From the IMG/VR virus record IMGVR_UViG_3300043470_002422: DNA of 64,000 nt. One strand, given 5' to 3'. The stretch comes from a virus. Its lineage: Duplodnaviria; Heunggongvirae; Uroviricota; Caudoviricetes. Shown piece after piece: positions 1-47,314 of this stretch. Position 1 is the stretch's first letter. Each line of letters begins with the position of its first letter. Under the pieces are notes generated by a model. The model made no database searches. It saw only the letters and a list, made by a program, of their open reading frames with translations, and was not told where the DNA came from. A program made the translations under genes and the position numbers.

Positions 1-870
1 TCCTTCGGCGACAAAGCTCGTCAGCAACTAATCAATCGTCTTAAGATTGCCAAAGCTGCAAGAGGAACCACTACAGTTTCCTTGGTAGTTTCTCCAGAGA
101 CAAAAACGATTCTCGGGGTTCATAAGTCTGCCAAAGATTTAATTTCAAACGATGCGTTCATCAAATCTGCTTCACAGATTATCGACCGCTACGACCTTCA
201 AGTAAATAACTTCTCGGTTTCTCAAGAAGGTGCCTTGGTCATCAACACTTCGTCACCCAAGAACAACTGGGACATTGCAGGTCTAAAAGACGAGCAATTC
301 TTCGGAGGAGTTTCCTTCGGCAACGACTCCAAAAACGGTTACCAAGTTTCTCCTTACCTTGAGAGGTTGGTCTGCGCAAATGGAATGATTGGCAGAGCAT
401 TTGAGGAAACCATGAAGCTTGAGTCATTCTCAGCCATGGCAATGGAAGCTTTCTTCAACGAAATGGAACAGTTAGCCAAGAGGGGGTTCAAACCTTCAAT
501 GTTTGACGAGAAGGTAAAACGAGCAATCGACACCAGAGCTTCTCTTTTCGAAATGGAAACCATTCACTCAGCAATGAGAGACCTTTCAAAAACAGAATAT
601 AAAGAGTTGGAGGCTTGGGTTCCTCTAGAGTCAACCAGAGCTAAATACCACTTGGCAGGAATTGACACGGTGACAATGTCTAAGGAGCAAAAGAAAAACG
701 CCAAAACTGGAACTTCAGTTTGGGATTTGCTAAACGGGCTAACCCACTTCTCAACTCACGACAACGGCTTTGCCATCAGCGACAACGACCGTAGAAGACT
801 TCAGGTTCAAGCCGGAGGACTTTTGGTAAAAGAATTCGACATGTCCAACTTGGTGACTTCACCATTCTAA
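1..870 (+). CDS. hypothetical protein, 5' partial (reading frame is open to the window start)
   Basis: Frame 1 has no stop from position 1 and ends at TAA 870. No recognisable motif. Confidence 0.5.
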   Translation, partial: SFGDKARQQLINRLKIAKAARGTTTVSLVVSPETKTILGVHKSAKDLISNDAFIKSASQIIDRYDLQVNNFSVSQEGALVINTSSPKNNWDIAGLKDEQFFGGVSFGNDSKNGYQVSPYLERLVCANGMIGRAFEETMKLESFSAMAMEAFFNEMEQLAKRGFKPSMFDEKVKRAIDTRASLFEMETIHSAMRDLSKTEYKELEAWVPLESTRAKYHLAGIDTVTMSKEQKKNAKTGTSVWDLLNGLTHFSTHDNGFAISDNDRRRLQVQAGGLLVKEFDMSNLVTSPF

Positions 871-924
871 ACCTTATAACTTGAAAACCGGGAGGGAGTC
901 TTAGGGCTTCCTCCCTTTTCAGTT

Positions 925-940
925 GAACGTATATTCTAAT
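925..940 (+). promoter_or_regulatory. Class A upstream motif (gAACGTATATTCTAAT) 3 nt before the ATG
   Basis: One of at least 23 near-identical copies of GACCGTATATTCTAAT, each directly upstream of a start codon. Confidence 0.6.
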
Positions 941-943
941 AAT

Positions 944-1282
944 ATGATTAAAAAATTAATACAAACCCTAAAGAGCTACAGCTTCTTTGACTACTTGCTC
1001 TTCCTCTTGGTCTTCTCAGGTCTAATTTTATCCTACTCGGCATTCCGTGAAGGCGACATCGGCAGGGGATTTGATAAGTTGACCATCGCCATCCTATTTG
1101 CGAACATGTTCTTAGCCGGCAGAATGCAAGGACAATCACAATCTCTAATTGAGGATTACCGAACCTTATCCGATTTGAAGTCCGAAATCATCGACGACCA
1201 GGAAAAAGAAATTGAAGCCTTACAGCAAGAGAACGCAAAACTAAAATCAAAACCCTCATTCACCGAAGGTTTGGAGGACTAA
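944..1282 (+). CDS. hypothetical membrane-anchored coiled-coil protein
   Basis: ATG at 944 follows the class A motif, so the TTG at 923 in the ORF track is probably not the real start. N-terminal hydrophobic helix and a C-terminal heptad-like, E/K-rich segment. Confidence 0.55.
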   Translation: MIKKLIQTLKSYSFFDYLLFLLVFSGLILSYSAFREGDIGRGFDKLTIAILFANMFLAGRMQGQSQSLIEDYRTLSDLKSEIIDDQEKEIEALQQENAKLKSKPSFTEGLED

Positions 1283-1339
1283 AAAAATTAAACTAAAACT
1301 ACGACTAAAGGGGAACTCAAAAGGTTCCTCTTTTGCTGC

Positions 1340-1355
1340 GACCGTATATTCTAAT
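1340..1355 (+). promoter_or_regulatory. Class A motif GACCGTATATTCTAAT immediately 5' of ATG 1356
   Basis: Exact consensus copy. Confidence 0.6.
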
Positions 1356-1748
1356 ATGACAGACCAGGAAATTTTCGACCTAGCCAAAGACCTAGATACT
1401 ATTGGCCACCAACAGAAGGAAATCATCAGGTTTATCTTCTTAGAAAAAAGACAATCTCAAGATGATTGGTTAGATTTTATGCGCCACTTCTCAGGTAAGA
1501 GGTTAATCTCTTTGAGCCACAAATCTGTCTACTCCTCCTTTGCACATTGGTCTCCTGAAGACGAAACCGGATGGGCAGAGAGATACTATAAGGGCAGAAC
1601 TTTAGAAGGACCTTGGGCAGCAGTACTAGAGGAAATCCAAACCATCAAAGACACCTTTCCCCATCTAAAATTTATCATCAGAGAAACGGACGAACATATT
1701 TCTTATCATCGAATAGACGATATTCGTTGTCAAATTTGGACTTTGTAA
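1356..1748 (+). CDS. hypothetical protein
   Basis: ORF immediately preceded by the class A motif. Confidence 0.55.
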   Translation: MTDQEIFDLAKDLDTIGHQQKEIIRFIFLEKRQSQDDWLDFMRHFSGKRLISLSHKSVYSSFAHWSPEDETGWAERYYKGRTLEGPWAAVLEEIQTIKDTFPHLKFIIRETDEHISYHRIDDIRCQIWTL

Positions 1749-1781
1749 CTAACACGACCGTATATTCTATCACACAACACC

Positions 1782-2027
1782 ATGAAAAAAATCTTAGTCA
1801 TCGCAATCACAGCAATCGCATTCCTAACATCTTGCACAGACAACGCCAGAGCCCGCAAGTTTGGAGGAACAGAAACCATTGAAATCCCAGCAGGAAGAAT
1901 CCTAGTCAACTGCACCTGGAAAGAATCGGACCTTTGGATTTTAACCAAAGACACAGCTACCGGCGAAATGTTCTTCAATGAGAAGTCTAGCTTTGGTTTA
2001 ATGGAAGGGGAAATCAACTTCAAGTAA
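1782..2027 (+). CDS. small putative lipoprotein
   Basis: Class A motif at 1756-1770. N-terminus MKKILVIAITAIAFLTSC has a signal peptide and a lipobox-like LTSC. Confidence 0.55.
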   Translation: MKKILVIAITAIAFLTSCTDNARARKFGGTETIEIPAGRILVNCTWKESDLWILTKDTATGEMFFNEKSSFGLMEGEINFK

Positions 2028-2060
2028 GACCGTATATTCCCATACATAACAACCAACCAC

Positions 2061-2381
2061 ATGAGAAAATTACTTATCGCATTCCGCCTTTTCAATTCCA
2101 CCTACGGACCACAAGGCAATCCAAAATCTTTATTCGTTAATCTAAAAGAGGACAACACCCTAGGCTACACCTTCATCGGAGGATGGCAGAACTCAGGAAC
2201 TGGCTTTGCCATTTCAAATCTCCAACTGAAGGAGTCCCTACCACTGGGAGCCAGAAACTTTAAAACCGTCGAAGCTCTCCAGAAGAAAATCGCGGCAATT
2301 CTAGCCACAGGCTGCGGCTCAAACGAAATCAAGACTTTCGAAATTCTAAACGACCTTAACACCATATCTTCAACCAAATAA
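2061..2381 (+). CDS. hypothetical protein
   Basis: Class A motif variant at 2028-2040. Confidence 0.5.
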   Translation: MRKLLIAFRLFNSTYGPQGNPKSLFVNLKEDNTLGYTFIGGWQNSGTGFAISNLQLKESLPLGARNFKTVEALQKKIAAILATGCGSNEIKTFEILNDLNTISSTK

Positions 2382-2389
2382 CAACCACA

Positions 2390-2551
2390 ATGAACAAACC
2401 AACAATGAACAAAGCCCAGCTCCAAGCCAGAATCGTAGAAGGAGCAAGAGAGATGATGAAAGACATGAAAAGACAAGGCCAAAGCCTAACCTTCATGGAA
2501 TGCAAAATGGAAATGGCAAAAGTTTTAAAGGAGAACTTCATCATCATCTAA
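2390..2551 (+). CDS. small hypothetical protein (53 aa)
   Basis: ATG-to-TAA ORF filling the gap between neighbouring genes, below the ORF-track size cutoff. MNKPTMNKAQLQARIVEGAREMMKDMKRQGQSLTFMECKMEMAKVLKENFIII. Confidence 0.3.
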   Translation: MNKPTMNKAQLQARIVEGAREMMKDMKRQGQSLTFMECKMEMAKVLKENFIII

Positions 2552-2552
2552 T

Positions 2553-2717
2553 ATGTCTTTATCACTAATCATCTGGTACATCTTCTGCTTCTTCTACGGA
2601 AACAGAGTTGCGGACTACTTCCTCTCAGACAAACCTAAGAACAAACCAAGAACCATTCTCTTTCTTGTTCTGACCGGAGTCTTCTTCGGAGGGCTAATCT
2701 CACTGTTCTTAAATTAG
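2553..2717 (+). CDS. small two-TM membrane protein (54 aa)
   Basis: ATG 2553 to TAG 2717. Hydrophobic segments IIWYIFCFFY and ILFLVLTGVFFGGLISLF. The TAG stop abuts the class A motif at 2717-2732 and is in frame with the next gene. Confidence 0.35.
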   Translation: MSLSLIIWYIFCFFYGNRVADYFLSDKPKNKPRTILFLVLTGVFFGGLISLFLN

Positions 2718-2732
2718 ACCGTATCTTCTAAC

Positions 2733-3173
2733 ATGAACAGCAACACACCACAAATCATCAACACGGAGAAAATCTACGAAGTGGATTTCATCCAAGGCAG
2801 AAAGGGTCTCTACAGAGCAGTAATAAAAGTCCAAGCAGGCTTCATGACAGTAGTGGACGACATCGGAATCGAGAACAACTGGGGAAGACAAGATTGGAAC
2901 AAAGCCATTGATGTCTTCAGAAACTTCAAGAAGGGAGCTCTCCAAACCATCCAGTTCAAAGCAGAAGGTTCTACCCACTGGACTACCGTCTTCGCCAAAA
3001 AAGGCACCAAGATAGTTCTAATGGACACCCAACTCTTCTTAGACATGGAAGTTGGAGACATCAACCAGAACTGGACCAACACCAACCTCTATAGCCAGAA
3101 GAACTACCAAGCAGCAGGAGCTAAGACTTGGGCAGACAAAGCATTCGTCCTTAACCACCCTAAAGCAGCCTAA
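2733..3173 (+). CDS. hypothetical protein
   Basis: Class A variant GACCGTATCTTCTAAC directly upstream. Confidence 0.55.
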   Translation: MNSNTPQIINTEKIYEVDFIQGRKGLYRAVIKVQAGFMTVVDDIGIENNWGRQDWNKAIDVFRNFKKGALQTIQFKAEGSTHWTTVFAKKGTKIVLMDTQLFLDMEVGDINQNWTNTNLYSQKNYQAAGAKTWADKAFVLNHPKAA

Positions 3174-3175
3174 CC

Positions 3176-3388
3176 ATGATAGAACTTCTAGGCTACCTAG
3201 CAATGACCCTCACAATGCTCTCCTTTGCCTTCTCAGACATGAGAACGCTTAGGGGAGTAAATGTATTGGCTTGTTTACTCTGGATTGTCTACGGGCTTCT
3301 TATGAAGTCAAACCCAATCATCTTCACAAACGTGGCGATAGCTTCGGTTCACATCATCTGGTTCATTAGAAACCGCCGCAAATCATAA
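3176..3388 (+). CDS. small three-TM membrane protein
   Basis: 70 aa with three hydrophobic helices. No assignable family. Confidence 0.45.
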   Translation: MIELLGYLAMTLTMLSFAFSDMRTLRGVNVLACLLWIVYGLLMKSNPIIFTNVAIASVHIIWFIRNRRKS

Positions 3389-3418
3389 CCGTATCTTCTA
3401 ACACAACAACACAGCCAA

Positions 3419-3754
3419 ATGATATTCTCAAACACTCAAATCAAAACAAAGACCATCCTAGTTCGCTTCTACTTCTACTCAGACACAGAAAGAGGTTACG
3501 GAGATGCAGGAACAGCCAAATACTTTAAAATGAAACTTGAAGACTTCTCCATGGTGGAGAACTCCAACTACTCAAGAGGCAAGTACTACACTTACAGACT
3601 CACCGATGAAGCCCACGAGAAAATCCAGAAAGTCTTAGGCAAAAGCTGGGGATATGGAATTGGCTATGAAATGAGAACCGGAAAAGAAAGACAGCTGGAG
3701 ATAATTAAGTTGAGAGCTAAATTGGAAGCTGCAGAAGTAGTAGAAGAAATCTAA
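3419..3754 (+). CDS. hypothetical protein
   Basis: Class A variant at 3387-3402. Confidence 0.5.
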   Translation: MIFSNTQIKTKTILVRFYFYSDTERGYGDAGTAKYFKMKLEDFSMVENSNYSRGKYYTYRLTDEAHEKIQKVLGKSWGYGIGYEMRTGKERQLEIIKLRAKLEAAEVVEEI

Positions 3755-3768
3755 CCGTATATTCTAAT

Positions 3769-3933
3769 ATGAACGAAAAAGAATTTTCCGCCCAAGACAT
3801 GATTGATTTCGCTAGATGGTTTGCAGAAGACGTTGACCAAAAAGAACTTGAAGCTTTCCGAGAAGAGCAGAAGAGAAAAGAAGGAGCTGAGTACCAGAGA
3901 TATTTGGAGTTAAAAGCTAAGTACGAAAAGTAA
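3769..3933 (+). CDS. small hypothetical protein (54 aa)
   Basis: Not in the ORF track because it is under 60 aa. The consensus class A motif at 3753-3768 is immediately followed by ATG 3769, and the ORF ends at TAA 3933. Confidence 0.5.
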   Translation: MNEKEFSAQDMIDFARWFAEDVDQKELEAFREEQKRKEGAEYQRYLELKAKYEK

Positions 3934-3941
3934 ATTCCAGT

Positions 3942-4217
3942 ATGACAACAACACACAAACTCAGAAAGGGAAAATACACCCTCCACAACTACTTCAGAGG
4001 ACAATCAGTTCCTCTACCAATCGAAATCGAATCAGTCACCAAAGGGGGAATCGAATACTCTTCAGACTACAACCTAGTAAACAAAGCAGACCAAAATCCG
4101 GTCTTCAAAGGAACTCCACAGGAGGAACTAGGCTATGACCCATTCTCTTCCGACTTCACCATGGACGAGATAGAGAAGATAGAAGGCAGAAACATTTACC
4201 TAAAGACAAGAGTTTAA
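3942..4217 (+). CDS. hypothetical protein
   Basis: ORF only. Confidence 0.45.
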   Translation: MTTTHKLRKGKYTLHNYFRGQSVPLPIEIESVTKGGIEYSSDYNLVNKADQNPVFKGTPQEELGYDPFSSDFTMDEIEKIEGRNIYLKTRV

Positions 4218-4218
4218 C

Positions 4219-4452
4219 ATGAGCAATAAAAAGCAAACCGCAGTAGACTTCCTGGTCGAACAGCTGCTAAAGAAAAGTGATATCCAGTACATCAATGGTT
4301 TTGAAGCTTTAGTCGAACAAGCCAAAGCAATGGAGGAAAATCAGCACCAAATAACTTTTGATATGGGCTACGAAGAGCATATTGTTGAAACCTGGGGAGA
4401 AGAAGACCCTAAAGGATTTAAAGACTATTTTACCGAGACCTATAAGAGCTAA
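4219..4452 (+). CDS. hypothetical protein
   Basis: ORF only, tightly packed after the previous stop. Confidence 0.45.
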   Translation: MSNKKQTAVDFLVEQLLKKSDIQYINGFEALVEQAKAMEENQHQITFDMGYEEHIVETWGEEDPKGFKDYFTETYKS

Positions 4453-4467
4453 CCCGTATATTCTAAT

Positions 4468-4785
4468 ATGAACAAAGAATTTGTCCCTTACGAAGAAGCA
4501 TTAGCCTTAAAAGAATTAGGGTTTGATGAACCTTGTTTTGGTTATTATGAACCTAATAAAGAGTTTGAGTACATAAATTGGGAAACATTCAAAGATTTTC
4601 CATATCTTGCAAAAAATAGTGAATGGCAAGATTTATGTGGAGCACCACTCTACCAACAAGCATTCAGATGGTTATACCAAAAATTAGATATTGAAAAGGG
4701 GGTAATGCCTTTAGATATTGAAGCTCAACAAATGTTACTAAAAGAATTAATACTAAAAGAATTAATTCAAACTCTAAAGAAGTAA
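4468..4785 (+). CDS. hypothetical protein
   Basis: Class A motif at 4451-4467. Confidence 0.55.
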   Translation: MNKEFVPYEEALALKELGFDEPCFGYYEPNKEFEYINWETFKDFPYLAKNSEWQDLCGAPLYQQAFRWLYQKLDIEKGVMPLDIEAQQMLLKELILKELIQTLKK

Positions 4786-4811
4786 CTTCATAATCGACCG
4801 TATATTCTAAT

Positions 4812-5126
4812 ATGAACAACCAAACACCAACTCAAGACACTTACATGGGAAGATCAGTTACCAAGAGAGTAACCATCCCAGCCCAGGAAGGCGACTTCCA
4901 AACCTACCGCATGGCGGAGGACATCCTCGAAGGCCAAGGTCATCGCATCGGCAGCATGTGTTCACCTGAGCCAACCGGCTTTGCTCCAGCAGAGGAGTTC
5001 GAGTACATCGCAAAGATGAGAAACATCTCTCCATCTGAGAGACAACTACTTCACGGGGTCATAGCCAGAAAAGGCGGGGACTTCAGAAACGGCGACCTTG
5101 AAATTATTTACTTCCAAACCAAATAA
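4812..5126 (+). CDS. hypothetical protein
   Basis: Class A motif at 4796-4811. Confidence 0.55.
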   Translation: MNNQTPTQDTYMGRSVTKRVTIPAQEGDFQTYRMAEDILEGQGHRIGSMCSPEPTGFAPAEEFEYIAKMRNISPSERQLLHGVIARKGGDFRNGDLEIIYFQTK

Positions 5127-5135
5127 TTTAAGACC

Positions 5136-5393
5136 ATGAGCAACTCAATTTTAAAAGTCATCTTAGGGGTAACCATCTTCTTCTTCATCTTAGTCGTCTT
5201 CACAGCCTGCGAAAAGCAAGCTCAATCCTCAACCATCAAAGGCCACAACATCGAAGTCGAATTCCTCTTCGAGCAAGACTCAGTCAAGGTCTACAGATTC
5301 TATGATGGTTCATACCACTACTTCACCACCAGAGGCGAGACCATGAGCACAAAGACTACAGGCAAAACCTCCCACCAGGAGAACATCAAATAA
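5136..5393 (+). CDS. small putative lipoprotein / membrane protein
   Basis: N-terminal signal or TM segment ending in FTAC (lipobox-like). Confidence 0.45.
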   Translation: MSNSILKVILGVTIFFFILVVFTACEKQAQSSTIKGHNIEVEFLFEQDSVKVYRFYDGSYHYFTTRGETMSTKTTGKTSHQENIK

Positions 5394-5394
5394 A

Positions 5395-5680
5395 GACATT
5401 GTGTGTGTTGTTAAACTTAGGTCCCTCCGGGGACCTTTGTTGTGGAGTAGGGGCTAGTAAAAGGACCCCTCCAGGGTCTGTGTGTAATAGAGAGGGCCCT
5501 CCAGGGAGTGGAGGGGGACCTAATTAGGGGTCCTATTAGGGGGTTAAGGGCCCCTTATATAAGGGGTACCTTGGAGGGGGTCCTGTAACGCTGAGGGGAC
5601 CCCTACAGGGGAGATTCAAGGGGGGGCCTCACGTAGGGGGTCTGTTGGTGGCAGGTCCAGACGCTCAGCGAAGTCCAATT
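5395..5680. repeat. GC-rich G-tract and palindrome island inside an AT-rich genome
   Basis: More than 15 runs of GGGG or longer. Inverted repeats of the AGGTCCC...GGGACCT type and a perfect 16-bp palindrome CCCCTTATATAAGGGG centred on the class B core. Confidence 0.6.
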
Positions 5681-5773
5681 GGATTTCCAGGTAGTCCACT
5701 TGGGATTCTTCATAGCTTTCCTAGTCTTTCCTGGTCTTTCCTGGTTCTCCACCCTAATCTCCTTCCACAGTAG

Positions 5774-5784
5774 AATATATAGGC
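5774..5784 (+). promoter_or_regulatory. Class B motif (GAATATATAGG) 2 nt before ATG 5787
   Basis: Same GGATATATAAG-type element as upstream of the other MKH-leader genes. Confidence 0.5.
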
Positions 5785-5786
5785 AC

Positions 5787-6587
5787 ATGAAGCACATCCT
5801 AGCCTTTCCCCTATTTGAATCCGTGTCCTTGACTCCAGACCAGAAAGTCTTTCTGGAAATGTGTATGGAGAACACCAATCTCAATTCCAAGTTTGTCCAA
5901 GACCCTGCAACAGGCAAGGTGACAACTCTGGGCAAATTCGATGCCCAGTACTATTACGAATCAAGACCAAACTCCGATAAGCAGAAGATCAGGGATCTGT
6001 TTAACTCCATTCCCTTTGGAGTAGCAGAAGGGAACTTCTCAGTCAGAGGGATGTACTTGGACGCTATGGTCAATTTCCCATCTTCAGTAGAAGGAACTTT
6101 GTCCCTCAGCAGGAACTCCCTGCTAACCTTGGAGGGAATACCTAAGATGATCTATAAGGATTTGAGTCTTGAAGACAATCACCTCATCTCTCTAGAAGGC
6201 ATGGAAGAGACAGAAGTTAGAGGAACCATCTGGTTTGCAGACAACTGGATCAGAGGTCTCTGGTTGAGAGAAGATCTGACCAGAGCCAAAGCCATTGGCA
6301 CTTGGGTTCCAATCTATCTGGACATCCTCTCAGGAGAGACCTCGTTCAGTGGGATTCCAAATCCCAACGAGCAGGAAGAGGCAAAGGCATTCATCATGGA
6401 GAAGAAGACGACAAAGGCTCAGATGGAAGAAGCCATCAGGGTGGCACCAGCAGAGATGACTGTGGCTCTCAGCAGAAAGCGGACTATGCCTCAGGAGATG
6501 CAAGATCTACTTCCGACACTGAATGTTCCTGAAGGATTCTGGGATGCTCCTGATCTCATGGGGGATCTGGAGGGAGTAGGACTGTAG
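5787..6587 (+). CDS. CTS-like-leader family protein with LRR-like 22-aa repeats and a C-terminal DLEGVGL
   Basis: Real start is ATG 5787 (MKHILAFPLFES); the ORF-track start at 5679 is an alternative upstream start. Internal repeats of the form N-x-L-x-x-L-E-G-x-P. Ends GDLEGVGL. Confidence 0.6.
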   Translation: MKHILAFPLFESVSLTPDQKVFLEMCMENTNLNSKFVQDPATGKVTTLGKFDAQYYYESRPNSDKQKIRDLFNSIPFGVAEGNFSVRGMYLDAMVNFPSSVEGTLSLSRNSLLTLEGIPKMIYKDLSLEDNHLISLEGMEETEVRGTIWFADNWIRGLWLREDLTRAKAIGTWVPIYLDILSGETSFSGIPNPNEQEEAKAFIMEKKTTKAQMEEAIRVAPAEMTVALSRKRTMPQEMQDLLPTLNVPEGFWDAPDLMGDLEGVGL

Positions 6588-6605
6588 ATGTTTCCGTACC
6601 AGTGA

Positions 6606-6618
6606 GGGATATATAAAC
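6606..6618 (+). promoter_or_regulatory. Class B motif GGGATATATAAAC
   Basis: Upstream of the ferritin-like gene. Confidence 0.5.
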
Positions 6619-6634
6619 CAAAATTTAACACCCA

Positions 6635-7246
6635 ATGGCAACACTAAAAGAATTCTTAACTATGAGAGAGAACATGGAAATCCAAGCAATTGAGGTTCCT
6701 GGTCTTGAACTGCCTGCTCAGACTTCCGAGCCTGTAGTAGTAGGATCAGGAGTGCCTAAACCAAAGACTCTGTCATCAGAGATCATCTCGGCTTTAGAAG
6801 CAAGACTCAAAGATGAATACACAGCTCACTACACATACCGTAACGCAGCCAACTGGTGCAAGAACATGAACTATAAGGCAGCAGCAGCCTACTTCGAAGG
6901 CGAAGCAGCAGAGGAGTTAGAACACGCAGCTGGACTTCAGGATTACATGACCCAGTGGAACTGTTTACCACAGATCCCACCTGTAACTGTGCCTAACGAG
7001 TTTACCTCTCTTGTGCATATCATAGGACATGCCTACACTATCGAGTATGATCTGCTTCAGAAGTACTCTGCACTTCAAAGGGCCTTTGATGCTGCTCATC
7101 CTGCTACATTCAATTTCATTCAGAAGTATGTAGACATTCAGAATGAGTCTGTTGCTAGCTACTCTGATCTCCTAAATGCTCTTGAGCTCATTAACATTGA
7201 TTCCAAGCTAGACATTCTAATCTTCGAAGGAAGATATTTCGGATAA
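6635..7246 (+). CDS. ferritin-like protein with an N-terminal extension
   Basis: Di-iron ferritin signature spacing EYTAHYTY...AAEELEHAAGLQDY...TIEYDL...IQNESV. Confidence 0.6.
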   Translation: MATLKEFLTMRENMEIQAIEVPGLELPAQTSEPVVVGSGVPKPKTLSSEIISALEARLKDEYTAHYTYRNAANWCKNMNYKAAAAYFEGEAAEELEHAAGLQDYMTQWNCLPQIPPVTVPNEFTSLVHIIGHAYTIEYDLLQKYSALQRAFDAAHPATFNFIQKYVDIQNESVASYSDLLNALELINIDSKLDILIFEGRYFG

Positions 7247-7268
7247 TCTTATAACACAAACACAACAC

Positions 7269-7300
7269 GAAGGTGTCTCTACTAGGGGCACCTTCTTTGT
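7269..7300 (+). terminator. Hairpin (GAAGGTG ... CACCTTC) followed by a T-rich tract
   Basis: 7-bp stem with a 13-nt loop, then TTTGTGTGT. Confidence 0.35.
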
Positions 7301-7458
7301 GTGTCCTAGTCTTATATGTAGAATGGATTGGGGTGCCGCCGGGAGGGGATGTAAACCCAAAATTTGGGCCTGAGCTTGGGAGGCCCTAGGGGGATCGGGA
7401 GCAAAACTCAGGGGCAGGGCCCAGCGCGCTTTAAAGCACATGATTGACATTGCCTGCA

Positions 7459-7470
7459 GGGATATATAAG
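7459..7470 (+). promoter_or_regulatory. Class B motif GGGATATATAAG 3 nt before ATG 7474
   Basis: Consensus copy. Confidence 0.55.
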
Positions 7471-7473
7471 CGA

Positions 7474-8301
7474 ATGAAGCACTTGCAGACATATAGCATC
7501 TTTGAATCCAAGACGGTACTGACTGAAGACCAGGAGACGTTCTTGTCTCTCTTCGTCGAACCTCTTGAGAATTCGAAGGGGATGCCTGGGACTTGGTCCG
7601 TCAACCCAAAAACCGGCTTGGTTGACGTCAATGGAAACTTTGAGTGCCCACAAAGGGGATTGAAGGACTTTAAGGGAATCTCCTTTGGCCATGTGAGTGG
7701 AGCCTTTGACTGCGATCGAAACGAACTTGTCAGCTTGAAGGGTGCACCTCAGTTGGTGAGAGATTTCTCCTGCGATCGAAATGACCTTGTCAGTCTCGAG
7801 GGAGCACCTCAGTTTGTCAGGGGAGGCTTCTACTGCAACACCAATAGGCTGAAGAACTTAAAAGGTGGCCCGGTAGAAGTGGGAGGGGATTTCTCCTGCG
7901 TTGGCAATGACCTCAAGACCTTGGAGGGAAGTCCAAGAACGGTGGGAGGGGATTTCTACTGCTATTCAAATTCAACTTCTCTTATCTCTTTAGCAGGGGC
8001 TCCAGAAACAATCGGTGGGACTTTTCACTGCGACTGGTTTGAACTTTCCAACTGGGGGGTTCCTGGCCTGCTGGAGACCATCAAGAAGGTCAACCCCAAA
8101 GCTCAGAAGATGATTTTGGACCTCCTGACTCCTGAGAAAATACAGCAGACGATTGACAGAGAGCCTGAGAAGATGGCTGTTGAATTAAAGGGGGTTTGGA
8201 AGACCCTGAAGGCGGATCCAAAATATGCAGGGCTAAAATTTCCAGAAGGAATCCAAGGGGATGCAGAGATGCTGTCAGACCTGGACGACGTTGGTCTTTA
8301 A
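7474..8301 (+). CDS. CTS-like-leader family protein with six LRR-like 22-aa repeats and a C-terminal DLDDVGL
   Basis: ATG 7474 (MKHLQTYSIFES). Repeats of the form C-D-R-N-x-L-V-S-L-x-G-A-P-Q-x-V. Ends LSDLDDVGL. Confidence 0.65.
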   Translation: MKHLQTYSIFESKTVLTEDQETFLSLFVEPLENSKGMPGTWSVNPKTGLVDVNGNFECPQRGLKDFKGISFGHVSGAFDCDRNELVSLKGAPQLVRDFSCDRNDLVSLEGAPQFVRGGFYCNTNRLKNLKGGPVEVGGDFSCVGNDLKTLEGSPRTVGGDFYCYSNSTSLISLAGAPETIGGTFHCDWFELSNWGVPGLLETIKKVNPKAQKMILDLLTPEKIQQTIDREPEKMAVELKGVWKTLKADPKYAGLKFPEGIQGDAEMLSDLDDVGL

Positions 8302-8312
8302 GGATATATAAG
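8301..8312 (+). promoter_or_regulatory. Class B motif AGGATATATAAG
   Basis: Immediately 5' of ATG 8315. Confidence 0.55.
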
Positions 8313-8314
8313 AC

Positions 8315-9199
8315 ATGAAGCACCTACAAACTTATCGTCGATTTGAATCTCAGCATGCCCTGAATGAAGGGGATGAATATCGCAAGATGAACATGGACTA
8401 CCTCTTGAACAAATTTACTCGAGTTCCAAACAACGGGAAGTTGTACAACCCTTCGGAGGAAGACTTTGCAGATCTGCCTTGGTATCAAGCCTTGAAGGGG
8501 GCATTTCCAGATTTCAAACTGGAGAGGGTCAGAAAGAAAGGGAATGGCTACTCTTGGTTCTTCCCTGGGCCAAAACCCAAACCTCAGGCTTTCTACGAGG
8601 TTTTCAGAGAAGGTGACAGAGACTCCCCCTCTGAAGAGCCGGCCAAGATTGTATTCAACAACGATTTAATGACTTCATCTCAGACGTTCACAATTTTACT
8701 CAACGATAAAGAGTCTTGGAATGAGCTCTTTAAGCTGCTCTATTTTGCCCAGTTTGAAGGAAAAATATCAGGACCTACTTGGAGGGGATTAAAACACATT
8801 ATGGAACTCTTCTCTTCGGATTTGGAGTCTTTTTACAAGACCGGAAATCTGGGAATAGTTGGAGTGAAAAAGGATTGCAACCCTTATGGAGGACACTACG
8901 AGTCCTCAGTTGATTTTCTGAAGAACCTTCCTTATGGCATCTTTGATGATCTGAAGGCTGGATTTGTCAAGAAGATGAAAGAAGATCCTGCGGAGATTCA
9001 GTATGCAATTTCTCAGTGTCAACTTCCGAAAGGAACAGCAGAGACCGTATTTGGCACAGCTAGACTCTACCCAGAAAATGAGGTGCTGAACTTCTACAAT
9101 CTGATGAAGCAAGAAGGTTATGTTCCACCGGCCGGATTTGACGAAGAAACTGGGGAAATTTCAGATATACACAAATCTCTAGGGGACATCGGTCTGTAG
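8315..9199 (+). CDS. CTS-like-leader family protein, C-terminal LGDIGL
   Basis: MKHLQTYRRFES leader. Ends SLGDIGL at a TAG stop. Confidence 0.6.
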   Translation: MKHLQTYRRFESQHALNEGDEYRKMNMDYLLNKFTRVPNNGKLYNPSEEDFADLPWYQALKGAFPDFKLERVRKKGNGYSWFFPGPKPKPQAFYEVFREGDRDSPSEEPAKIVFNNDLMTSSQTFTILLNDKESWNELFKLLYFAQFEGKISGPTWRGLKHIMELFSSDLESFYKTGNLGIVGVKKDCNPYGGHYESSVDFLKNLPYGIFDDLKAGFVKKMKEDPAEIQYAISQCQLPKGTAETVFGTARLYPENEVLNFYNLMKQEGYVPPAGFDEETGEISDIHKSLGDIGL

Positions 9200-9210
9200 C
9201 ATATAAGGAC

Positions 9211-9252
9211 ATGAAGCACATAAAACTATTTGAAGACTACTCAGACGAAGAT
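9211..9252 (+). repeat. 42-nt exact direct repeat (second copy at 9786-9827)
   Basis: atgaagcacataaaactatttgaagactactcagacgaaga is identical at both positions. Confidence 0.8.
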
Positions 9253-9789
9253 TTAGCAGGACTAATGTCCGATCTAGATGGGGTTGGTCTTATGAATAAA
9301 GTAATTGTTAGCTTCGGGGAAAAAATTCCAATTCCTCAAGAGGTGACCCATCCATCTTGGTGGGCAGAGCCTTGGGGGAAATTTGCCATCGTGGAGATTT
9401 ACACTCCAGAGAAAGGTCCAAAGGCAGAACAACTGGCTTTCGAAAAAATTAAAAAGGGAGACTTCACTCAAGATTTATCGAAATTAGATACTGATGCTTA
9501 CAAGAACAGAATTTCCAACATTCTGAAGTTTTTTAGTTCGGAGAGAATTCAGAAGGAAGCTCAAGAATCTCGGGACGTGGTGGAATTCAAAACTCGAATT
9601 CACGAAAAGTCGGGACAGATCCTATTTAACGAATGGGAAGGTATAGTCGAGAAATATCTCGAAGGAAAATCTGAAGATTATGCGAAAGAATTTTTCAACA
9701 CGCTTTGGAAATCCACCCCCAAATCAGCCAAGCAAGAGATTGCCGGATCCACAGCAATAAAAGTTTTGCAAACCGAAGTAAATAAATGA
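9211..9789 (+). CDS. CTS-like-leader family protein, N-terminal MKHIKLFEDYSDE...SDLDGVGL
   Basis: Leader plus the DLxxVGL motif within the first 27 aa. Paralog of the next gene. Confidence 0.6.
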   Translation: MKHIKLFEDYSDEDLAGLMSDLDGVGLMNKVIVSFGEKIPIPQEVTHPSWWAEPWGKFAIVEIYTPEKGPKAEQLAFEKIKKGDFTQDLSKLDTDAYKNRISNILKFFSSERIQKEAQESRDVVEFKTRIHEKSGQILFNEWEGIVEKYLEGKSEDYAKEFFNTLWKSTPKSAKQEIAGSTAIKVLQTEVNK

Positions 9790-10358
9790 AGCACATAAAA
9801 CTATTTGAAGACTACTCAGACGAAGAAATCAAGTCCCTCATGGGGGACCTTGCCGAGGTTGGTCTGGGAAAGAAATGGAGGGTTGTTGGATCAATATCCA
9901 CAGTTACCCCAGAAGTCAACTACTATAGAAACTGGGAAGAACAAGTCCATGAGGTTTTCATTGTGGAAGTTGCTGCAGATTCAGAGAAGACGGCATATTT
10001 AGAGGCCTTTGAAAAACTTAAATCTGGAGACTTCACTCAGAAACTTTCAGATGAAATGGAAAAATGGAATAACGTTCTGAATAAAATTCCAGAGGTGGGA
10101 AAAATTCTTTCCAAAGACAACATCATCAAAGCTGCTAATGGAAAGGCAAATCAGCAGCCAATGGAGAGGAAGGACATTACAGGAAATCCAATCTATGACG
10201 GAAAAATTAGATGGGTCATGACTGTTGATCTTGTGGGTCCGACTGAAGAGGCAATTCTAAATAAGATAAAGTCCATGACAGGAGGTGTTGTTAGCCCAGA
10301 GATGGAGGAATTTGTTAACGAAAATGTGGGTTGGAACTTAAGAGCAGAAGAAATATGA
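9786..10358 (+). CDS. CTS-like-leader family protein, tandem paralog
   Basis: MKHIKLFEDYSDEEIKSLMGDLAEVGL. Shares AFEKxKxGDFTQ with the upstream gene. The ATGA start and stop overlap. Confidence 0.6.
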   Translation: MKHIKLFEDYSDEEIKSLMGDLAEVGLGKKWRVVGSISTVTPEVNYYRNWEEQVHEVFIVEVAADSEKTAYLEAFEKLKSGDFTQKLSDEMEKWNNVLNKIPEVGKILSKDNIIKAANGKANQQPMERKDITGNPIYDGKIRWVMTVDLVGPTEEAILNKIKSMTGGVVSPEMEEFVNENVGWNLRAEEI

Positions 10359-10426
10359 GACGCTTAAAGTCATATAAAATATTCGAGGCTAATAAGCCTA
10401 CAAGTCTATAACAATCGAAATTTATT

Positions 10427-10442
10427 TACCGTATCTTTCTAT
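10427..10442 (+). promoter_or_regulatory. Class A variant TACCGTATCTTTCTAT
   Basis: Upstream of ATG 10451. Confidence 0.45.
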
Positions 10443-10450
10443 AACATAAT

Positions 10451-11110
10451 ATGGAAGATCAAGAATTGTGGGATCTCATGGGAGACCTTGAAGACGTTGG
10501 GCTTGGAGATAGTATCACCAAGGCTTATTCGATTACGGGATTTTATGAAGATGGGGAAGAGCATCTCGACAACGACATTTTGACTGCTAATATCTTGAAT
10601 GCTTTTATTGAAGTCAATGAATCAGATGGGGCTGATTTATTTCTTGACAAACTAGACGAGCCAAAATCTCCTCATATGGACCCTTTAGTTTCCTCCTGGT
10701 TTGGTGACAACTACCTTATAATCAAAGGAAACTTCACCAGGGTTAGATCAGTCGAAGAAAGGCTAAGAAAAGAGTTTGTAATCGAAAAAGAGGTTGAGCT
10801 TAAAGACTATAAAAAATTAGAGCTTAGTGGAAGTTCCGGATCTTACGGTGCGACTGGAATTTCAGGAACTCCTGGAATTTCAGGAACGACTGGATATGCT
10901 GGAACTACCACGGTTGTATATTCTTCCCCAGGATTGAGCGGGTCTTGGTCCACCTCAGGAGTAACGGTTTCTGTCTCAACTCCAAAGATGATCCAAACTT
11001 CTGTCAAGATCGAAATGCCGATCAGGGAGCTAAAAGATCCACCAGAAGATGAGGTTGAGACCTACGGACATCCTCTTTGGGAAAAGATTAAAGGTAAACT
11101 AGGATTCTAA
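10451..11110 (+). CDS. protein with an N-terminal GDLEDVGL motif and a Gly/Ser/Thr collagen-like low-complexity stretch
   Basis: MEDQELWDLMGDLEDVGLGD, then GATGISGTPGISGTTGYAGTT. Confidence 0.55.
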   Translation: MEDQELWDLMGDLEDVGLGDSITKAYSITGFYEDGEEHLDNDILTANILNAFIEVNESDGADLFLDKLDEPKSPHMDPLVSSWFGDNYLIIKGNFTRVRSVEERLRKEFVIEKEVELKDYKKLELSGSSGSYGATGISGTPGISGTTGYAGTTTVVYSSPGLSGSWSTSGVTVSVSTPKMIQTSVKIEMPIRELKDPPEDEVETYGHPLWEKIKGKLGF

Positions 11111-15393: not shown

Positions 15394-15813
15394 GCAGATT
15401 TCGTACCCTATATATGATATATAAATTGAATAATATTTACATATCAAGCCAAGAAAAAAACATCTACTCATTATATTTAAAAAACAACCTGCACAATTAC
15501 TAAAAAATTTTATATTGGGATTCTTTCTACATCTATTTTGGATGATGGATATTTAGGATCTGGAGTAAAATTAACCAGATCTGTTAAGAAATATGGAAAA
15601 TACAATCACATTAAAGAAATTCTAGAATACTTGAGTGATAGAGAGTCTTTATTATAATAAAAGAATTATTAGTAAACGAAGATCTAATAAATGATCCATT
15701 TTGTATGAATTTAATAGTAGGAGGAAATTTTTCGGGGCTCAATTATCGTAAAGAACACACCGAAAAAACTAAAAATAAAATTTCTTCTAAATAAAGGGAA
15801 AATAGAAAAAATT

Positions 15814-18800
15814 ATGGCTCAAAAGTATTTGAGCAAAGCTTTGGCTTTCGCTTTAACCTTGTTTGCAACACAAGGAAATCTTCATGCAGCATGCGGGAAT
15901 CTCACACCGAGTTTCAGTAATGCATCCAACAAAACCTGTGGTATACCTCAGGTAATTACACTTACCAATACTTCCACTGGAAACAGTCGAAATGTAGCCA
16001 CCTACAAGTGGTATGTGGGTACCACACTGCTGAGCACACAAGTTGGCAAATCCACCCAAAAATACACCATCAACACTGCAGGTAGCTATACCTTCAAGTT
16101 GGTGGCGATAGATACGGGTAAGGTGGGCTGTAAAGACAGCACAAGCACTACCATTACCATTTCGGCATCTGTTCCGAGAATTTTGGATGGCAATAGAGTA
16201 AATACCTATTCTCCCATTTGGGAAAATTGTATAAGTTCATTGGGGGTTCCTGACACCTTTGGTATAAATATCAAACCTCAGGATTCATTGCGAAATTACA
16301 CCATAGTTTGGGGGGATGGCACCGGTAATTCTACTGGCACTTTACTGCTTAGCAGCCAATCCCTCTACCATAAGTATAATTCACTAGGACAATTTACTTT
16401 ATTAATCATCGGAACAAAGGGAAGTTGCACTGATACCCTTCGAGGTGTGGTGTCGAATGAAAGAAATCCTGTGGCTGGAATTGTGGGTCCACCAACAGGA
16501 ACCAATGCAGGTTGTGTGCCCATTCGCATGCGTTTTATCAATAACTCTTCCTTAAGCTCACCTAGCACCACTTTTACCTGGGATTTTGGCAATGGCGAAA
16601 CCATAGTAAGGGGATTCAATACCCACAAAGACACTTTATTTTATACCTATAAGCGCTTTTTGTGTAATGGCATCGTGAAACTTACTCAAACCAATAATTG
16701 TGGTTCGAGTTTTGCCACCTGGAACCCAATCATGGCTTCCTCTAAGGATACTGCCATTATTGCGCCGACCAATCCGACCAACTGCGATCTTGCTGTACCT
16801 TTTACGTTTAACAATACCTCTCAAAATCGTTTTTGTAGCACGCCAAACAATAAGAAATACCTCTGGGTTTGGGGCGACGGAACCAATTCTGGTTGGAGTA
16901 CTTCTTCTGCTTCGCAGTCTAAAACCTACAGCAAGCGCGGTGTGTACCAGGTCTTGCTGATTGATTCAAATGGCTGCGGTAAAGATACTGCAAGGTATAC
17001 CTTGCGTATCGATAGCATGCCTACCATTTCTGCAGGCCCAGCGTCGGCTGCAGGATGCTCACCTTTGGTGGTAAACTTCAGAGACAACAGCATAAATGCA
17101 ACTTCTAGAAATTGGGATTTTGGATATGCAACACCAACAAGCAGTGCGCAAAACCCAACCCATACCTATCAAACAGGTGGTACATATAGAGCAGTGCTGA
17201 CAGTAGCCAACAATTGTGGATCATTAAAAGATACTGTCCTTATTACTGTCAAACAAAAAGTAAAGGCAAACTTCAATACACCGCTTACTGGCTGTGCTCC
17301 ATTAACACAGAAATGGACCAATACATCTGTCAAAGGATTGGCAGGAACCCCTACATATTTCTGGGATTTTGGGGACGGAACAACTTCTACCCAGGTGAAT
17401 CCTCCAGATAAAACTTACTCTACGTTAGGGACATATACCATTACACTCATTGCTACAGACTCATGCGGTAAGGATACCATTAAAAAGACGTTTACCGTCC
17501 GTGGTAAGCCCTCTGCTACAATTACTTTGTTATCTTCAAGCCGGTGTGTGGGCAGCACTTTAGATATTCGCTTTGTAACCTCACCCGTAAATACAGCTTC
17601 AGTTATCTGGGGTGATGGAACCAATGGCAGCAGTTATTTCGGATTGGGTGGTTCAGTTGACCGCACGGTTTCCAGAAAATACGACAGTCTGCGCACCTAC
17701 AGATTTGGGGTAGTTATGGTGGATCCAAGCGGTTGCCGAGACACCAATTACCTAAACATTGCAATGGATCCAAGGCCTACGATGAACTATACCTACACCA
17801 CAACCAATGGTTGTGGTCCTTTGGATGTTACATTTACCAATACCAGTGCGCACAATGGAGGGGGTAACATCAACCAAATGAAGTTCTTATGGAACTTTAG
17901 TAATGGTATATTGGCTTACAGCAAAGATACTGCAGCTAGGTTCTTGCCGTTTAAAACAAGAGACTCTATTTATCCCGTTAAATTAATTGGAACAAACGCC
18001 TTTGGCTGCAGAGATTCCATTACCAAAACGGTTCGAGTTTATCCAAAACCATTGAGTAAATTTAGTATTAGTGAAAAGGATGGTTGTGCACCTTTGGATA
18101 TTACTACTACGAACAATTCTACTCCATATGACACGGGTTCTATAAACATAATGAAGTTTATATGGGACTTTGGCAACGGCAGGAAAGCGTTTGGTAAAGA
18201 TACTGCTGCTCGATTCTTAGCCAGTAAAACAAAAGATACTGTGTATACTGTTAGTCTGATATCTATTTCTGAACATGGTTGCCGAGATACCAGTTCAACC
18301 ACAGTGCGTATTTATCCAAAACCTAAAGCCTTATTTACCAGAAGTAAAACTGAAGGTTGCAAACCACTCGGGGTTACCTATGTCAACCAAAGTGTACCCT
18401 ACGATACCGGCAATATATCAATAATGAGTTTTGCTTGGGATTTAGGAAATAGAATTACCTCATTCGCTACAGAACCTGTGGGTATCTATAATGATGCGAT
18501 AAACAAAGATACTACTTATAAGGTACGTTTGATTGCCACTAGTGAGCACGGATGCAAGGATACTGCAAATTCCACTGTACTGTTACATCCGAATCCGGTG
18601 ATTAAATTTGATATGAGCCGCACCAATGGCTGCGGTCCATTGCCTGTGAGCTTCTCGAACAAGAGCATCAACGGCGATGCATTTACTTGGGAGTTTGGCG
18701 TATATGGAACTGATACCGCAAAGAGTCCTAGTAAGGTATTCTATGGCCGCGATATTTTTGACTCAGTAGTAGTGGTGAAGCTTAGCGCGATGAGCAAATT

Positions 18801-40332: not shown

Positions 40333-41291
40333 ACAAAGTTTCCTTTGCTGTCCATCGGAACGTGAATGTATTTACCAAATGGAGGTACGTTGAAATTCTT
40401 TCCTTTTTCGCAAATAAACCAGAAAACTCTCTTTACGTAATTGTTAATTCCATAGGAGGATTTATCAGGATATTCGGCAAATGAATCTGTCAAGTAAATT
40501 ACTACAGATGGATTAATTTTCTGCTTCTGAATCCAAGCAAACGGTGGAATAAATCCTTTAGCATTACCTCCAGTAGAAGCAATCTTTCCAAAGTCTGGTT
40601 TACCACCTTTTTTAACAATATCAATAGAATCTATATCGTCTGAACAGTAGATGATATAGGTTGTGTCTATATCCATCTTTGTGGAAAGATAAAGAACTTC
40701 AGAGATAAAGGTTTTGATTTGTTCCTTAGAAATAGATCCCGAGGTATCTACAGGAAGAACTAAAGTTCTAAGAGTATCTTTACCTGCTCTCTTTCTTCCG
40801 TATAAAATATCACCAGATCCTAAAAATCTTCTATTTGGTAGTGTTTCTTCCCATTTATTCAAGGCACTATCCATGAACTTTTTAAGTTCTTTTTTCCAGT
40901 CAATCTTTGGCTTGGTTGTTCTTAAATCTATCAATAGTCTTCTTCCTTTTTCAGAAAGAGATGCTCCTGCAGAAGACATAGCTGCTCTTGTTGCATTTTC
41001 CCACATCGCGGAAACTTTTGATTTGCTTCCGCCCGATCCCATAGCTTGCTTAGAGGTATAGGACTTGGTAGATGTTTTGGGTCCCTGTGATGGATTTCTC
41101 TCGTAACCTGGACCTGTTTTTGCATTTGGATCTAATTTAGGGGTTTCCACGTCTTCAGGAGCTTTTTCTAATTCCTGTGGTGAACTTGTTCCTTCTTTTT
41201 TATCCCCAGCTTGAGGTTTCTGTTGCCCTGGTTCTACAGTGTCAACATCTACTATAACGAATTCTCCTTTTTTAACTTGCATTTTATTCAA
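40329..41291 (-). CDS. vWA (MIDAS) domain protein, third gene of the MoxR-peptidase-vWA operon
   Basis: VLPVDTSGSI is a DxSGS MIDAS motif. Low-complexity N-terminal half. Confidence 0.6.
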   Translation of the reverse strand: MNKMQVKKGEFVIVDVDTVEPGQQKPQAGDKKEGTSSPQELEKAPEDVETPKLDPNAKTGPGYERNPSQGPKTSTKSYTSKQAMGSGGSKSKVSAMWENATRAAMSSAGASLSEKGRRLLIDLRTTKPKIDWKKELKKFMDSALNKWEETLPNRRFLGSGDILYGRKRAGKDTLRTLVLPVDTSGSISKEQIKTFISEVLYLSTKMDIDTTYIIYCSDDIDSIDIVKKGGKPDFGKIASTGGNAKGFIPPFAWIQKQKINPSVVIYLTDSFAEYPDKSSYGINNYVKRVFWFICEKGKNFNVPPFGKYIHVPMDSKGNFV

Positions 41292-47301: not shown

Positions 47302-47314
47302 GTTTATATATCCC
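47302..47314 (-). promoter_or_regulatory. Class B motif (GGGATATATAAAC on the minus strand)
   Basis: Reverse complement of GTTTATATATCCC. Confidence 0.5.

Follow-up and report, generated by a model that had tools for sequence, protein, structure and literature searches.

What does a short GC-rich island, crowded with G-runs and palindromes, do in an otherwise AT-rich phage genome? One such island lies at 5395-5680 of a 64,000-nucleotide DNA of the Caudoviricetes (IMG/VR record IMGVR_UViG_3300043470_002422), the whole length of which is hereafter called the window. A sequence-only reading had offered several roles for it: a G-quadruplex (G4) or iteron-type regulatory or origin region, a pac site or recombination hotspot, and the scar of a horizontally acquired higher-GC module. 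By its protein content, in particular a PKD/CHU_C protein and a DUF4884 gene, the window derives from a huge Bacteroidota phage. In the PKD/CHU_C protein (1,697 aa, 15814-20907) some ten PKD domains are combined with a C-terminal type IX secretion signal (CHU_C), which speaks for a Bacteroidota host and for secretion or surface display of this phage protein; the DUF4884 gene, which is lipoprotein-like, precedes the island. A Lon-like protease encoded in the window shares 62% identity with proteins from 634-642-kb 'uncultured phage' genomes, and no DNA-level match was found among deposited phages, whether the region or the island alone served as the query. Between -8.6 kb and +40 kb, almost every gene has the + orientation.

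The GC content of 5395-5680 is 56.6%, against 37.5% for the window as a whole. Its + strand holds 11 G-runs of at least four and 15 of at least three, along with three C-runs; more than 15 runs of four or more had been claimed, which is too many, but the cluster is nonetheless the densest in the window. Runs of four or more average 0.7 per 286 nt, and the next best stretch of that length has only 5; the cluster lies far outside chance expectation (Poisson tail about 1e-7 after correction for the number of stretches compared). Seven of the nine copies of GGGGWCC/GGWCCCC in 64 kb fall within the island, and G outnumbers C by 89 to 41 over 5440-5660. The two inverted repeats quoted earlier, AGGTCCC-TCCG-GGGACCT (5419-5436) and GGGGACCCC (5595-5603), are present, as is the perfect 16-bp palindrome CCCCTTATATAAGGGG at 5551-5566, but the TATATAA core around which the latter is built is not conserved, with CCCCTTATACAGGGGG in two of five relatives. 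A second, weaker island had been reported at 7300-7440. Its GC content (56.7%) bears this out, but its run count alone (5) is insignificant (p ~0.17). Both islands lie directly 5' of MKH genes, as had been noted, with starts ATGAAGCAC at 5787 and 7474.

The coding sequence downstream (5787-8301) is GC-rich at 47.4%, against 36.2% for 11-64 kb, again in keeping with the earlier description, but the raised GC spreads well beyond 5.4-8.3 kb: it is 42% over 1-5393 and 41% over 8.3-11.1 kb, and GC3 is 0.46 from -8.6 to +11 kb. Over this left 20 kb (upstream sequence L011 1-8645 and window 1-11110) GC3 thus differs from the 0.26-0.34 found elsewhere (window 11111-64000). A 12-kb block of small orphan genes shows a strong preference for C- and A-ending codons. 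The left 20 kb is compositionally distinct, perhaps reflecting expression class or ancestry. Near window ~3390-3420 the orphan-gene block is hyperplastic among near-identical and related strains, extra small genes (82 aa, 250 aa) being inserted there in L012 (8651-9666) and L032 (2586-4160). Two homing endonuclease genes were also seen, both on the minus strand: a NUMOD3-type gene (L011 3453-4130), the sole minus-strand gene of the upstream block, and an HNH-type gene (window 41284-42309). Further downstream, the protein at 24516-25574 matches PHROG 1211 (E = 1e-55), is adenylosuccinate-synthetase-like and is annotated as '2-aminooxy adenylosuccinate synthetase', which we tentatively take to be a PurZ-type enzyme; if so, the phage might make 2-aminoadenine DNA.

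Island 1 proper takes up the whole 393 nt that separate the upstream gene (stop codon, 5393) from the start codon, ATG, of the MKH gene at 5787. Its parts, and those of island 2, are collected in Table 1.

Table 1. Features of the two islands, in window positions.
Feature	Position	Strand	Remark
GT-rich leader AGACATTGTGTGTGTTGTTAAAC	5394..5416	+	begins right behind the preceding stop codon
Intrinsic terminator of the upstream gene: hairpin AGGTCCC-TCCG-GGGACCT and T/G-rich tail TTTGTTGTGG	5419..5446	+	terminator scan
Conserved G-rich core, ~225 nt	5447..5671	+	alignable in five diverged relatives
Most conserved block: CCCTCCA-N5-TGGAGGG (5497-5515), GGACCTAATTAGGGGTCC (5516-5533), left part of palindrome 5551-5566	5486..5561
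Right-hand module: AACGCTGAG, GGGGACCCC, GGGGGGGCCTCACGTAGGGGGTC, ACGCTCAGCG	5587..5670	+	paralogous copy upstream
Fast-evolving short tandem repeats	5672..5769	+	2 x 21 nt AGTCCAMTTGG.ATTC and 3 x 10 nt CTTTCCTRGT, within 5672-5745; pyrimidine-rich strand
Promoter-like motif GTAGAATATATAGGCAC	5770..5786	+	abuts the ATG of the MKH gene; nearly invariant in relatives
MKH-family gene, 266 aa	5787..6587	+	orthologue behind island 1 in every relative; 57-88% aa identity
Island 2 CA-rich leader and terminator hairpin GAAGGTG...CACCTTC of the ferritin gene	7253..7295	+	hairpin 7269-7295; terminator scan
Island 2 G-rich core (7326-7454, ~120 nt), then GCGCGCTTTAAAGCAC, GATTGACATTGCC, promoter motif GGATATATAAG (7460-7470)	7326..7470	+	

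Within the leader, TGTGTGTTGTTA is invariant in all five aligned sequences, regardless of which gene lies upstream. A GC-rich hairpin with a T-rich tail directly past a gene, as expected of an intrinsic terminator, was found by the terminator scan at 5419-5446 and at 7269-7305, and for the first of these the stem (5419-5436) is compensated among relatives: GGTCCC/GGGACC, GGTTCC/GGAACC and GACTCC/GGAGTC all occur. The core contains 10 of the 11 runs of four or more G. The tandem repeats differ from one relative to another: L030 has three GGGTTCTCAATT and four AGCTCTTAAT, L017 has three AATAGGTTCCC, and L027 and L033 have units of the TCCAATAGGTTTCC type. The right-hand module has a single paralogous copy, detected by nhmmer at L011 1769-1860, 12.2 kb upstream of island 1 and outside the window, and the motifs of the module occur at these two sites only in 72 kb. 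That copy occupies a short, G-rich stretch between genes, with a second promoter-like motif, CGTATATTTAAG, behind it, and its location matches the far end of the 12-kb gene block whose third codon positions are C-rich.

The motif that abuts the MKH start codon, GTAGAATATATAGGCAC, belongs to a class, ...ATATATA[AG]G, that is shared by sites before other genes of the window. Copies of the form (G)GGATATATAA(G/A) or AATATATAGG precede genes at 5775, 6606, 7460, 8302, 9199 and 38311, and on the minus strand at 47313, 48109 and 54094. The distance from motif to start codon is either 4-5 nt or 18-30 nt. Since the motif recurs before genes at both spacings, it is read as a promoter rather than as a translation signal, and probably represents a phage promoter class; the short spacing in turn implies that MKH mRNAs would be leaderless or nearly so. 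The MKH genes form a paralogous family at 5787-11110 (starts at 5787, 7474, 8315, 9211 and 9786, with a related gene at 10451), and a further member lies at ~38.4-39.5 kb. Members share the N-terminus MKH(I/L)..F and a motif DL.D(V/I)GL, which is C-terminal or near-N-terminal and could be a processing, packaging or docking signal; those at 5787 and 7474 have leucine-rich-type repeats.

Exact-protein look-ups first gave near-identical strains only (99.4-100% identity). Diverged relatives were reached via the ferritin and MKH proteins (L017, L022, L027, L028, L029, L030/L031 and L032), and L033 was added by a second metagenome pattern scan, the first having come back empty. Island 1 lies at the same place in five diverged lineages and in all near-identical strains. 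Over 5440-5670 the five diverged relatives are 76-85% identical to the window, and in the block 5486-5561 identity to each of them rises to 92-93%, compared with 61-87% at the four-fold sites of flanking genes (binomial p ~1e-8 to 1e-9 for the two most distant relatives). Because this block is better conserved than four-fold sites, island 1 is under purifying selection. Within the core, 75% of G-run positions, 100% of C-run positions and 56% of the others are invariant; substitutions in G-runs are present in two relatives. No reading frame stays open across the core, which also shows 1-nt indels among relatives, and coding potential was rejected on account of stops and frame-breaking indels.

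Searches beyond these relatives were negative. IMG/VR yielded no relative to a pair of flanking proteins, to an alignment of 13 MKH sequences or to three patterns of island or promoter; one IMG/VR match, L023, was a chance hit to an unrelated phage. No GTDB genome matched an island 20-mer, and a 17-mer, GGGGCCTCACGTAGGGG, gave 14 matches, about the number expected by chance, and was dropped. Ten of these 14 lie in a repeated intergenic element (..CCCCCTTTGACAAGGGGGCCTCACGTAGGGGCG..) of rabbit-gut Clostridia MAGs (L034, L036, L038-L041 and L043-L046), a resemblance that is probably fortuitous, the flanks being dissimilar. Nor were G-run islands seen in the sampled regions of more distant huge phages (LR756502, LR756501 and the clade with ferritin beside DNA polymerase B), which suggests that the element is specific to the present clade.

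Island 2 follows the same plan as island 1, namely terminator, core and promoter motif, the tandem repeats being found in island 1 only; the two islands cannot be aligned with each other. In six relatives the core of island 2 and GATTGACATTGCC-N6-GGATATATAA are kept despite different neighbours. The gene downstream is of the 7474 type in L022 and L030, of the 8315 type in L029 and a 144-aa MKH gene in L017, whereas in L028 the island leads, via a 30-nt AT-rich leader, into a 687-aa non-MKH gene; the L027 contig breaks off after the first ~90 nt of a gene with a 7474-like start. L030 has retained the core behind other upstream genes and another terminator hairpin. Genes upstream of island 1 vary as well, being DUF4884 alone, DUF4884 with a 74-80-aa gene, or a 97-aa and an 81-aa gene, and gene content differs on both sides of both islands among relatives. 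The ferritin-like gene upstream of island 2 (6635-7246) has 734 metagenomic homologues at E <= 1e-10. Its neighbours in more distant huge phages are HSP70, DNA glycosylase, DNA polymerase B and ribonucleotide reductase genes; here it stands between two MKH genes, a slot that lacks ferritin in L030.

Among the roles first proposed, a regulatory region is the one that these data favour, as the islands are conserved, under purifying selection and tied to a downstream promoter motif though their neighbours differ. Our leading explanation, put forward tentatively, is that each island is a control cassette, non-coding, conserved and close to a promoter, in a clade of Bacteroidota huge phages, with its core acting as a DNA-level upstream control element. 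The terminator would close the upstream gene, and the promoter motif would act from its position a few bases before the start codon. Between them, the core may work as double-stranded DNA, a platform of sequence-specific sites, for which the GGGG-W-CCT units and the short palindromes of C-run, AT and G-run are candidates; the putative binder would be a transcription factor, of phage or host origin, with control over the adjacent promoter. A contribution may also come from extruded hairpins or from long-looped G4 structures on the non-template strand. Because the cassette stays constant while the genes on either side are exchanged, it probably has a second role as a homology patch for the recombinational shuffling of gene cassettes. 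We infer all three activities, protein binding, an effect on transcription and a part in recombination, from comparative data. The partial duplicate of island 1 supports the cassette, since it too lies in an intergenic region 5' of a promoter-like motif.

Judged from the alignment, the constraint on the core appears to be on sequence and not on pairing. The terminator stem serves here as a positive control, as its covariation in the same sequences means that they have diverged enough to reveal real stems; unlike it, the predicted stems of the core are either invariant or broken. An apparent covariation of GGGGTCC/GGACCCC to GGGGACC/GGTCCCC between the window and L027 did not survive a larger set of sequences, in which the two W positions vary independently. 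A/T toggles account for nine of the 63 two-state columns, which is not unusually frequent. Three features sit uneasily with the cassette. The palindromes in the core are unlike one another and would need several proteins, or would favour a nucleic-acid structure over a single repeated operator; a duplex binding platform would not call for the strong excess of G over C, which all three G-rich regions show on one and the same strand; and islands 1 and 2 do not align. Conserved non-coding DNA directly 5' of a promoter, constrained in sequence and adjoined by phased short repeats, is reminiscent of phage upstream activating and operator regions, in which binding sites of a regulator form arrays, but the motifs of the island are heterogeneous and strand-biased, and the length and G-richness of the whole are unusual for a bacterial-type promoter.

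The nearest known counterparts are the PeSLs of T4-type phages, composite promoter-terminator motifs described as 'mobile regulatory cassettes' (PMC2839356, PMC4122927). In RB49 and phi1 the PeSL stem consists of a G-run, a loop and a C-run (PMC2839356, PMC4122927). PeSLs are located at points of gene insertion, deletion and replacement between close relatives, and so combine a regulatory unit with a recombination patch (PMC2839356, PMC4122927). The islands resemble them in being intergenic in a large AT-rich phage, in joining a stem-loop terminator and a promoter in one intergenic unit, and in lying where genes have been gained, lost or replaced among relatives, which holds for either side of island 2 and for the upstream side of island 1. 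By our reading PeSLs are short, however, with little beyond a promoter and one stem-loop, whereas the islands carry a conserved G-skewed core of 120-225 nt between terminator and promoter. Moreover, PeSLs occur in many copies per genome with sigma-70-type early promoters; the islands use a different, phage-specific promoter motif, and there are only two or three such regions in 72 kb, island 1 having one partial paralogue and islands 1 and 2 being unalignable. By analogy, then, the islands would be PeSL-like in function but much larger and G-rich.

A more unusual possibility, which we regard as unlikely though worth keeping in sight, is that the islands are a strand-asymmetric G-run cis element of a new class, in which a non-B DNA or RNA structure (a long-looped G4, an R-loop or hairpins) would switch on the promoter of a leaderless mRNA or start recombination that diversifies the MKH genes; equally, the core might be a new, phage-specific family of structured RNA. 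The suggestion of a G-quadruplex is only partly borne out. No canonical G4 motif (at least four runs of three or more G, loops of 1-7 nt) was found on either strand of the whole window, but relaxed motifs with loops of 8-14 nt are predicted. Allowing loops of up to 12 nt yields four motifs across the 64 kb: island 1 holds three of them and island 2 the fourth. Six G4Hunter peaks reach at least 1.5, and four of these are inside the two islands.

An RNA gene is, in our judgement, rather improbable. The core would then encode one or more small non-coding RNAs, either a G-rich leader RNA from the plus strand or a C-rich RNA from the minus strand, the latter of ~90 nt, starting at the palindromic TATATAA element and ending at the hairpin 5478-5464 with CUUUU. 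The location of the block 5486-5561, exactly between an invariant minus-strand promoter-like motif (TATAAGGGGCCC) and this terminator-like hairpin, fits such a gene; the hairpin is weak, however, with only a 4-bp stem retained in L029 and L030, and island 2 has no conserved internal promoter motif among relatives. Both arms of CCCTCCA-N5-TGGAGGG are invariant and three of the five loop positions vary, and several unlike small hairpins suit an RNA more than protein operators. Against this, substitutions at 5540 and 5542 break predicted pairs, and folding is barely better than that of shuffled sequences on both strands (z -0.2 to -3.5). RNAalifold predicts 58 pairs in island 1, one of them compensatory, with an unfavourable covariation term of +2, which is weak evidence as it comes from six lineages only; in island 2 four of 30 pairs are compensatory and the term is -0.18. 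Over the 6-7 sequences aligned, most stems are invariant. Rfam gave no match to the core even at E up to 5; Rfam 15 gave none at gathering scores in the whole window, with one chance-level match elsewhere within 5300-7550 (E = 1.1), and no tRNA or tmRNA genes were found. Finally, the island moves with the downstream promoter, which an independent RNA gene would not need to do.

The confinement of relaxed G4 motifs to the two islands, out of 64 kb, also bears on recombination. A hotspot is compatible with the data, insofar as relatives differ in gene content to either side of the islands. The stronger version, that a G4 or R-loop in the island triggers gene conversion or cassette exchange among MKH paralogues, has a precedent in the pilE G4 of Neisseria, and the islands do precede a paralogous family, with variable gene content at their borders. 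We nevertheless think it improbable, as loops of 8-14 nt and competing nearby C-runs make folding doubtful, and two relatives have substitutions inside a G-run.

A replication origin is a comparably poor candidate. It could be of iteron type, built on the repeats at 5672-5745, or primed by an R-loop or G4 through the G-rich non-template strand, as at ColE1, at the T4 origins oriF and oriG and at mitochondrial CSBII. Like pilE, the G-stretch of ColE1 RNA II and the T4 R-loop origins, the islands cluster non-template G-runs beside a promoter and 5' of a variable gene family; they differ in lacking a canonical G4 and an unwinding element, and read-through from a promoter into the core is hypothetical. 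The G-clusters are confined to one strand, direct repeats of 10- and 21-nt period adjoin the core, and a gene for a RecA/DnaB-superfamily ATPase, whose family matches are weak, lies ~7.5 kb upstream of the island. There is in addition a local minimum of cumulative GC skew at ~5.0-5.8 kb, which was first taken as a sign of an origin and was dropped after codon-position analysis, since GC3 skew goes from -0.34 over the 12-kb upstream block to +0.04 within the MKH block, then to -0.18 for the following 29 kb and to ~0 beyond; the minimum therefore reflects the third-position codon usage of gene blocks. The skew is positive again 6.8 kb upstream of the window, so that there is no replication-type V. 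Repeat unit and copy number differ in every relative, and the highest A+T per 30 nt within 5394-5786 is 63%, about the genome median, so an AT-rich unwinding element is absent; on these grounds the iteron-type origin of the sequence-only reading is not supported. Initiator, primase and polymerase genes were not found nearby among ~40 proteins scanned in the window and upstream, and an origin leaves island 2 and the portability of the islands unexplained. The other long intergenic regions of the window are AT-rich, unlike the islands. The most AT-rich long gap, 15394-15813 (420 nt, 25% GC, just 5' of the PKD/CHU_C gene), would suit an unwinding element better than the G-rich island does.

Cohesive ends are marked by GC-rich islands in many AT-rich phages, and a conserved, repeat-dense, GC-rich non-coding region in an AT-rich genome could in principle be a packaging or terminus signal, pac or cos. 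This is very unlikely here: there are two or three such regions rather than one, contig ends are not piled up at the island (a single break lies inside a tandem repeat), and neither terminase nor structural genes were found among the ~40 scanned proteins, a subset of the ORFs of the window and upstream sequence. The pac site once proposed accordingly finds no support.

Least credible of all is the scar of a higher-GC module, or a functionless selfish GC-cluster or REP-like mobile element of the kind that supplies mobile GC-rich palindromic clusters to some AT-rich genomes, despite the raised GC3 of the left 20 kb: conservation, it appears, largely refutes it, as the region is shared at the same place by all relatives, an outcome that the sequence-only reading itself had named as refuting, the rate of change in the central block is far below that at synonymous sites, the 72 kb contain just one additional, partial copy, and conserved flanking inverted repeats or target duplications are absent among relatives. 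Yeast mitochondrial GC clusters and bacterial REP/BIME elements are likewise GC-rich, palindromic, intergenic and placed directly past gene ends in AT-rich genomes, but they are short, highly repeated and polymorphic in presence, whereas the island is long, nearly single-copy and fixed in position.

Island 1 is thus most likely, on comparative grounds, a junction of transcription control and gene shuffling rather than an origin, a packaging site or a scar of foreign DNA. To our knowledge, the organisation of transcription and the turnover of orphan-gene blocks in huge phages of Bacteroidota are almost unstudied. The islands represent a non-coding element that is better conserved than the surrounding proteins, tied to a specific promoter motif and located at junctions of gene exchange. 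If the G-runs work via a G4 or an R-loop, they would provide a rare, conserved and testable case in a phage. The islands may offer a handle on a regulator, on a transcription programme and on cassette-driven modular shuffling outside the T4-type phages.
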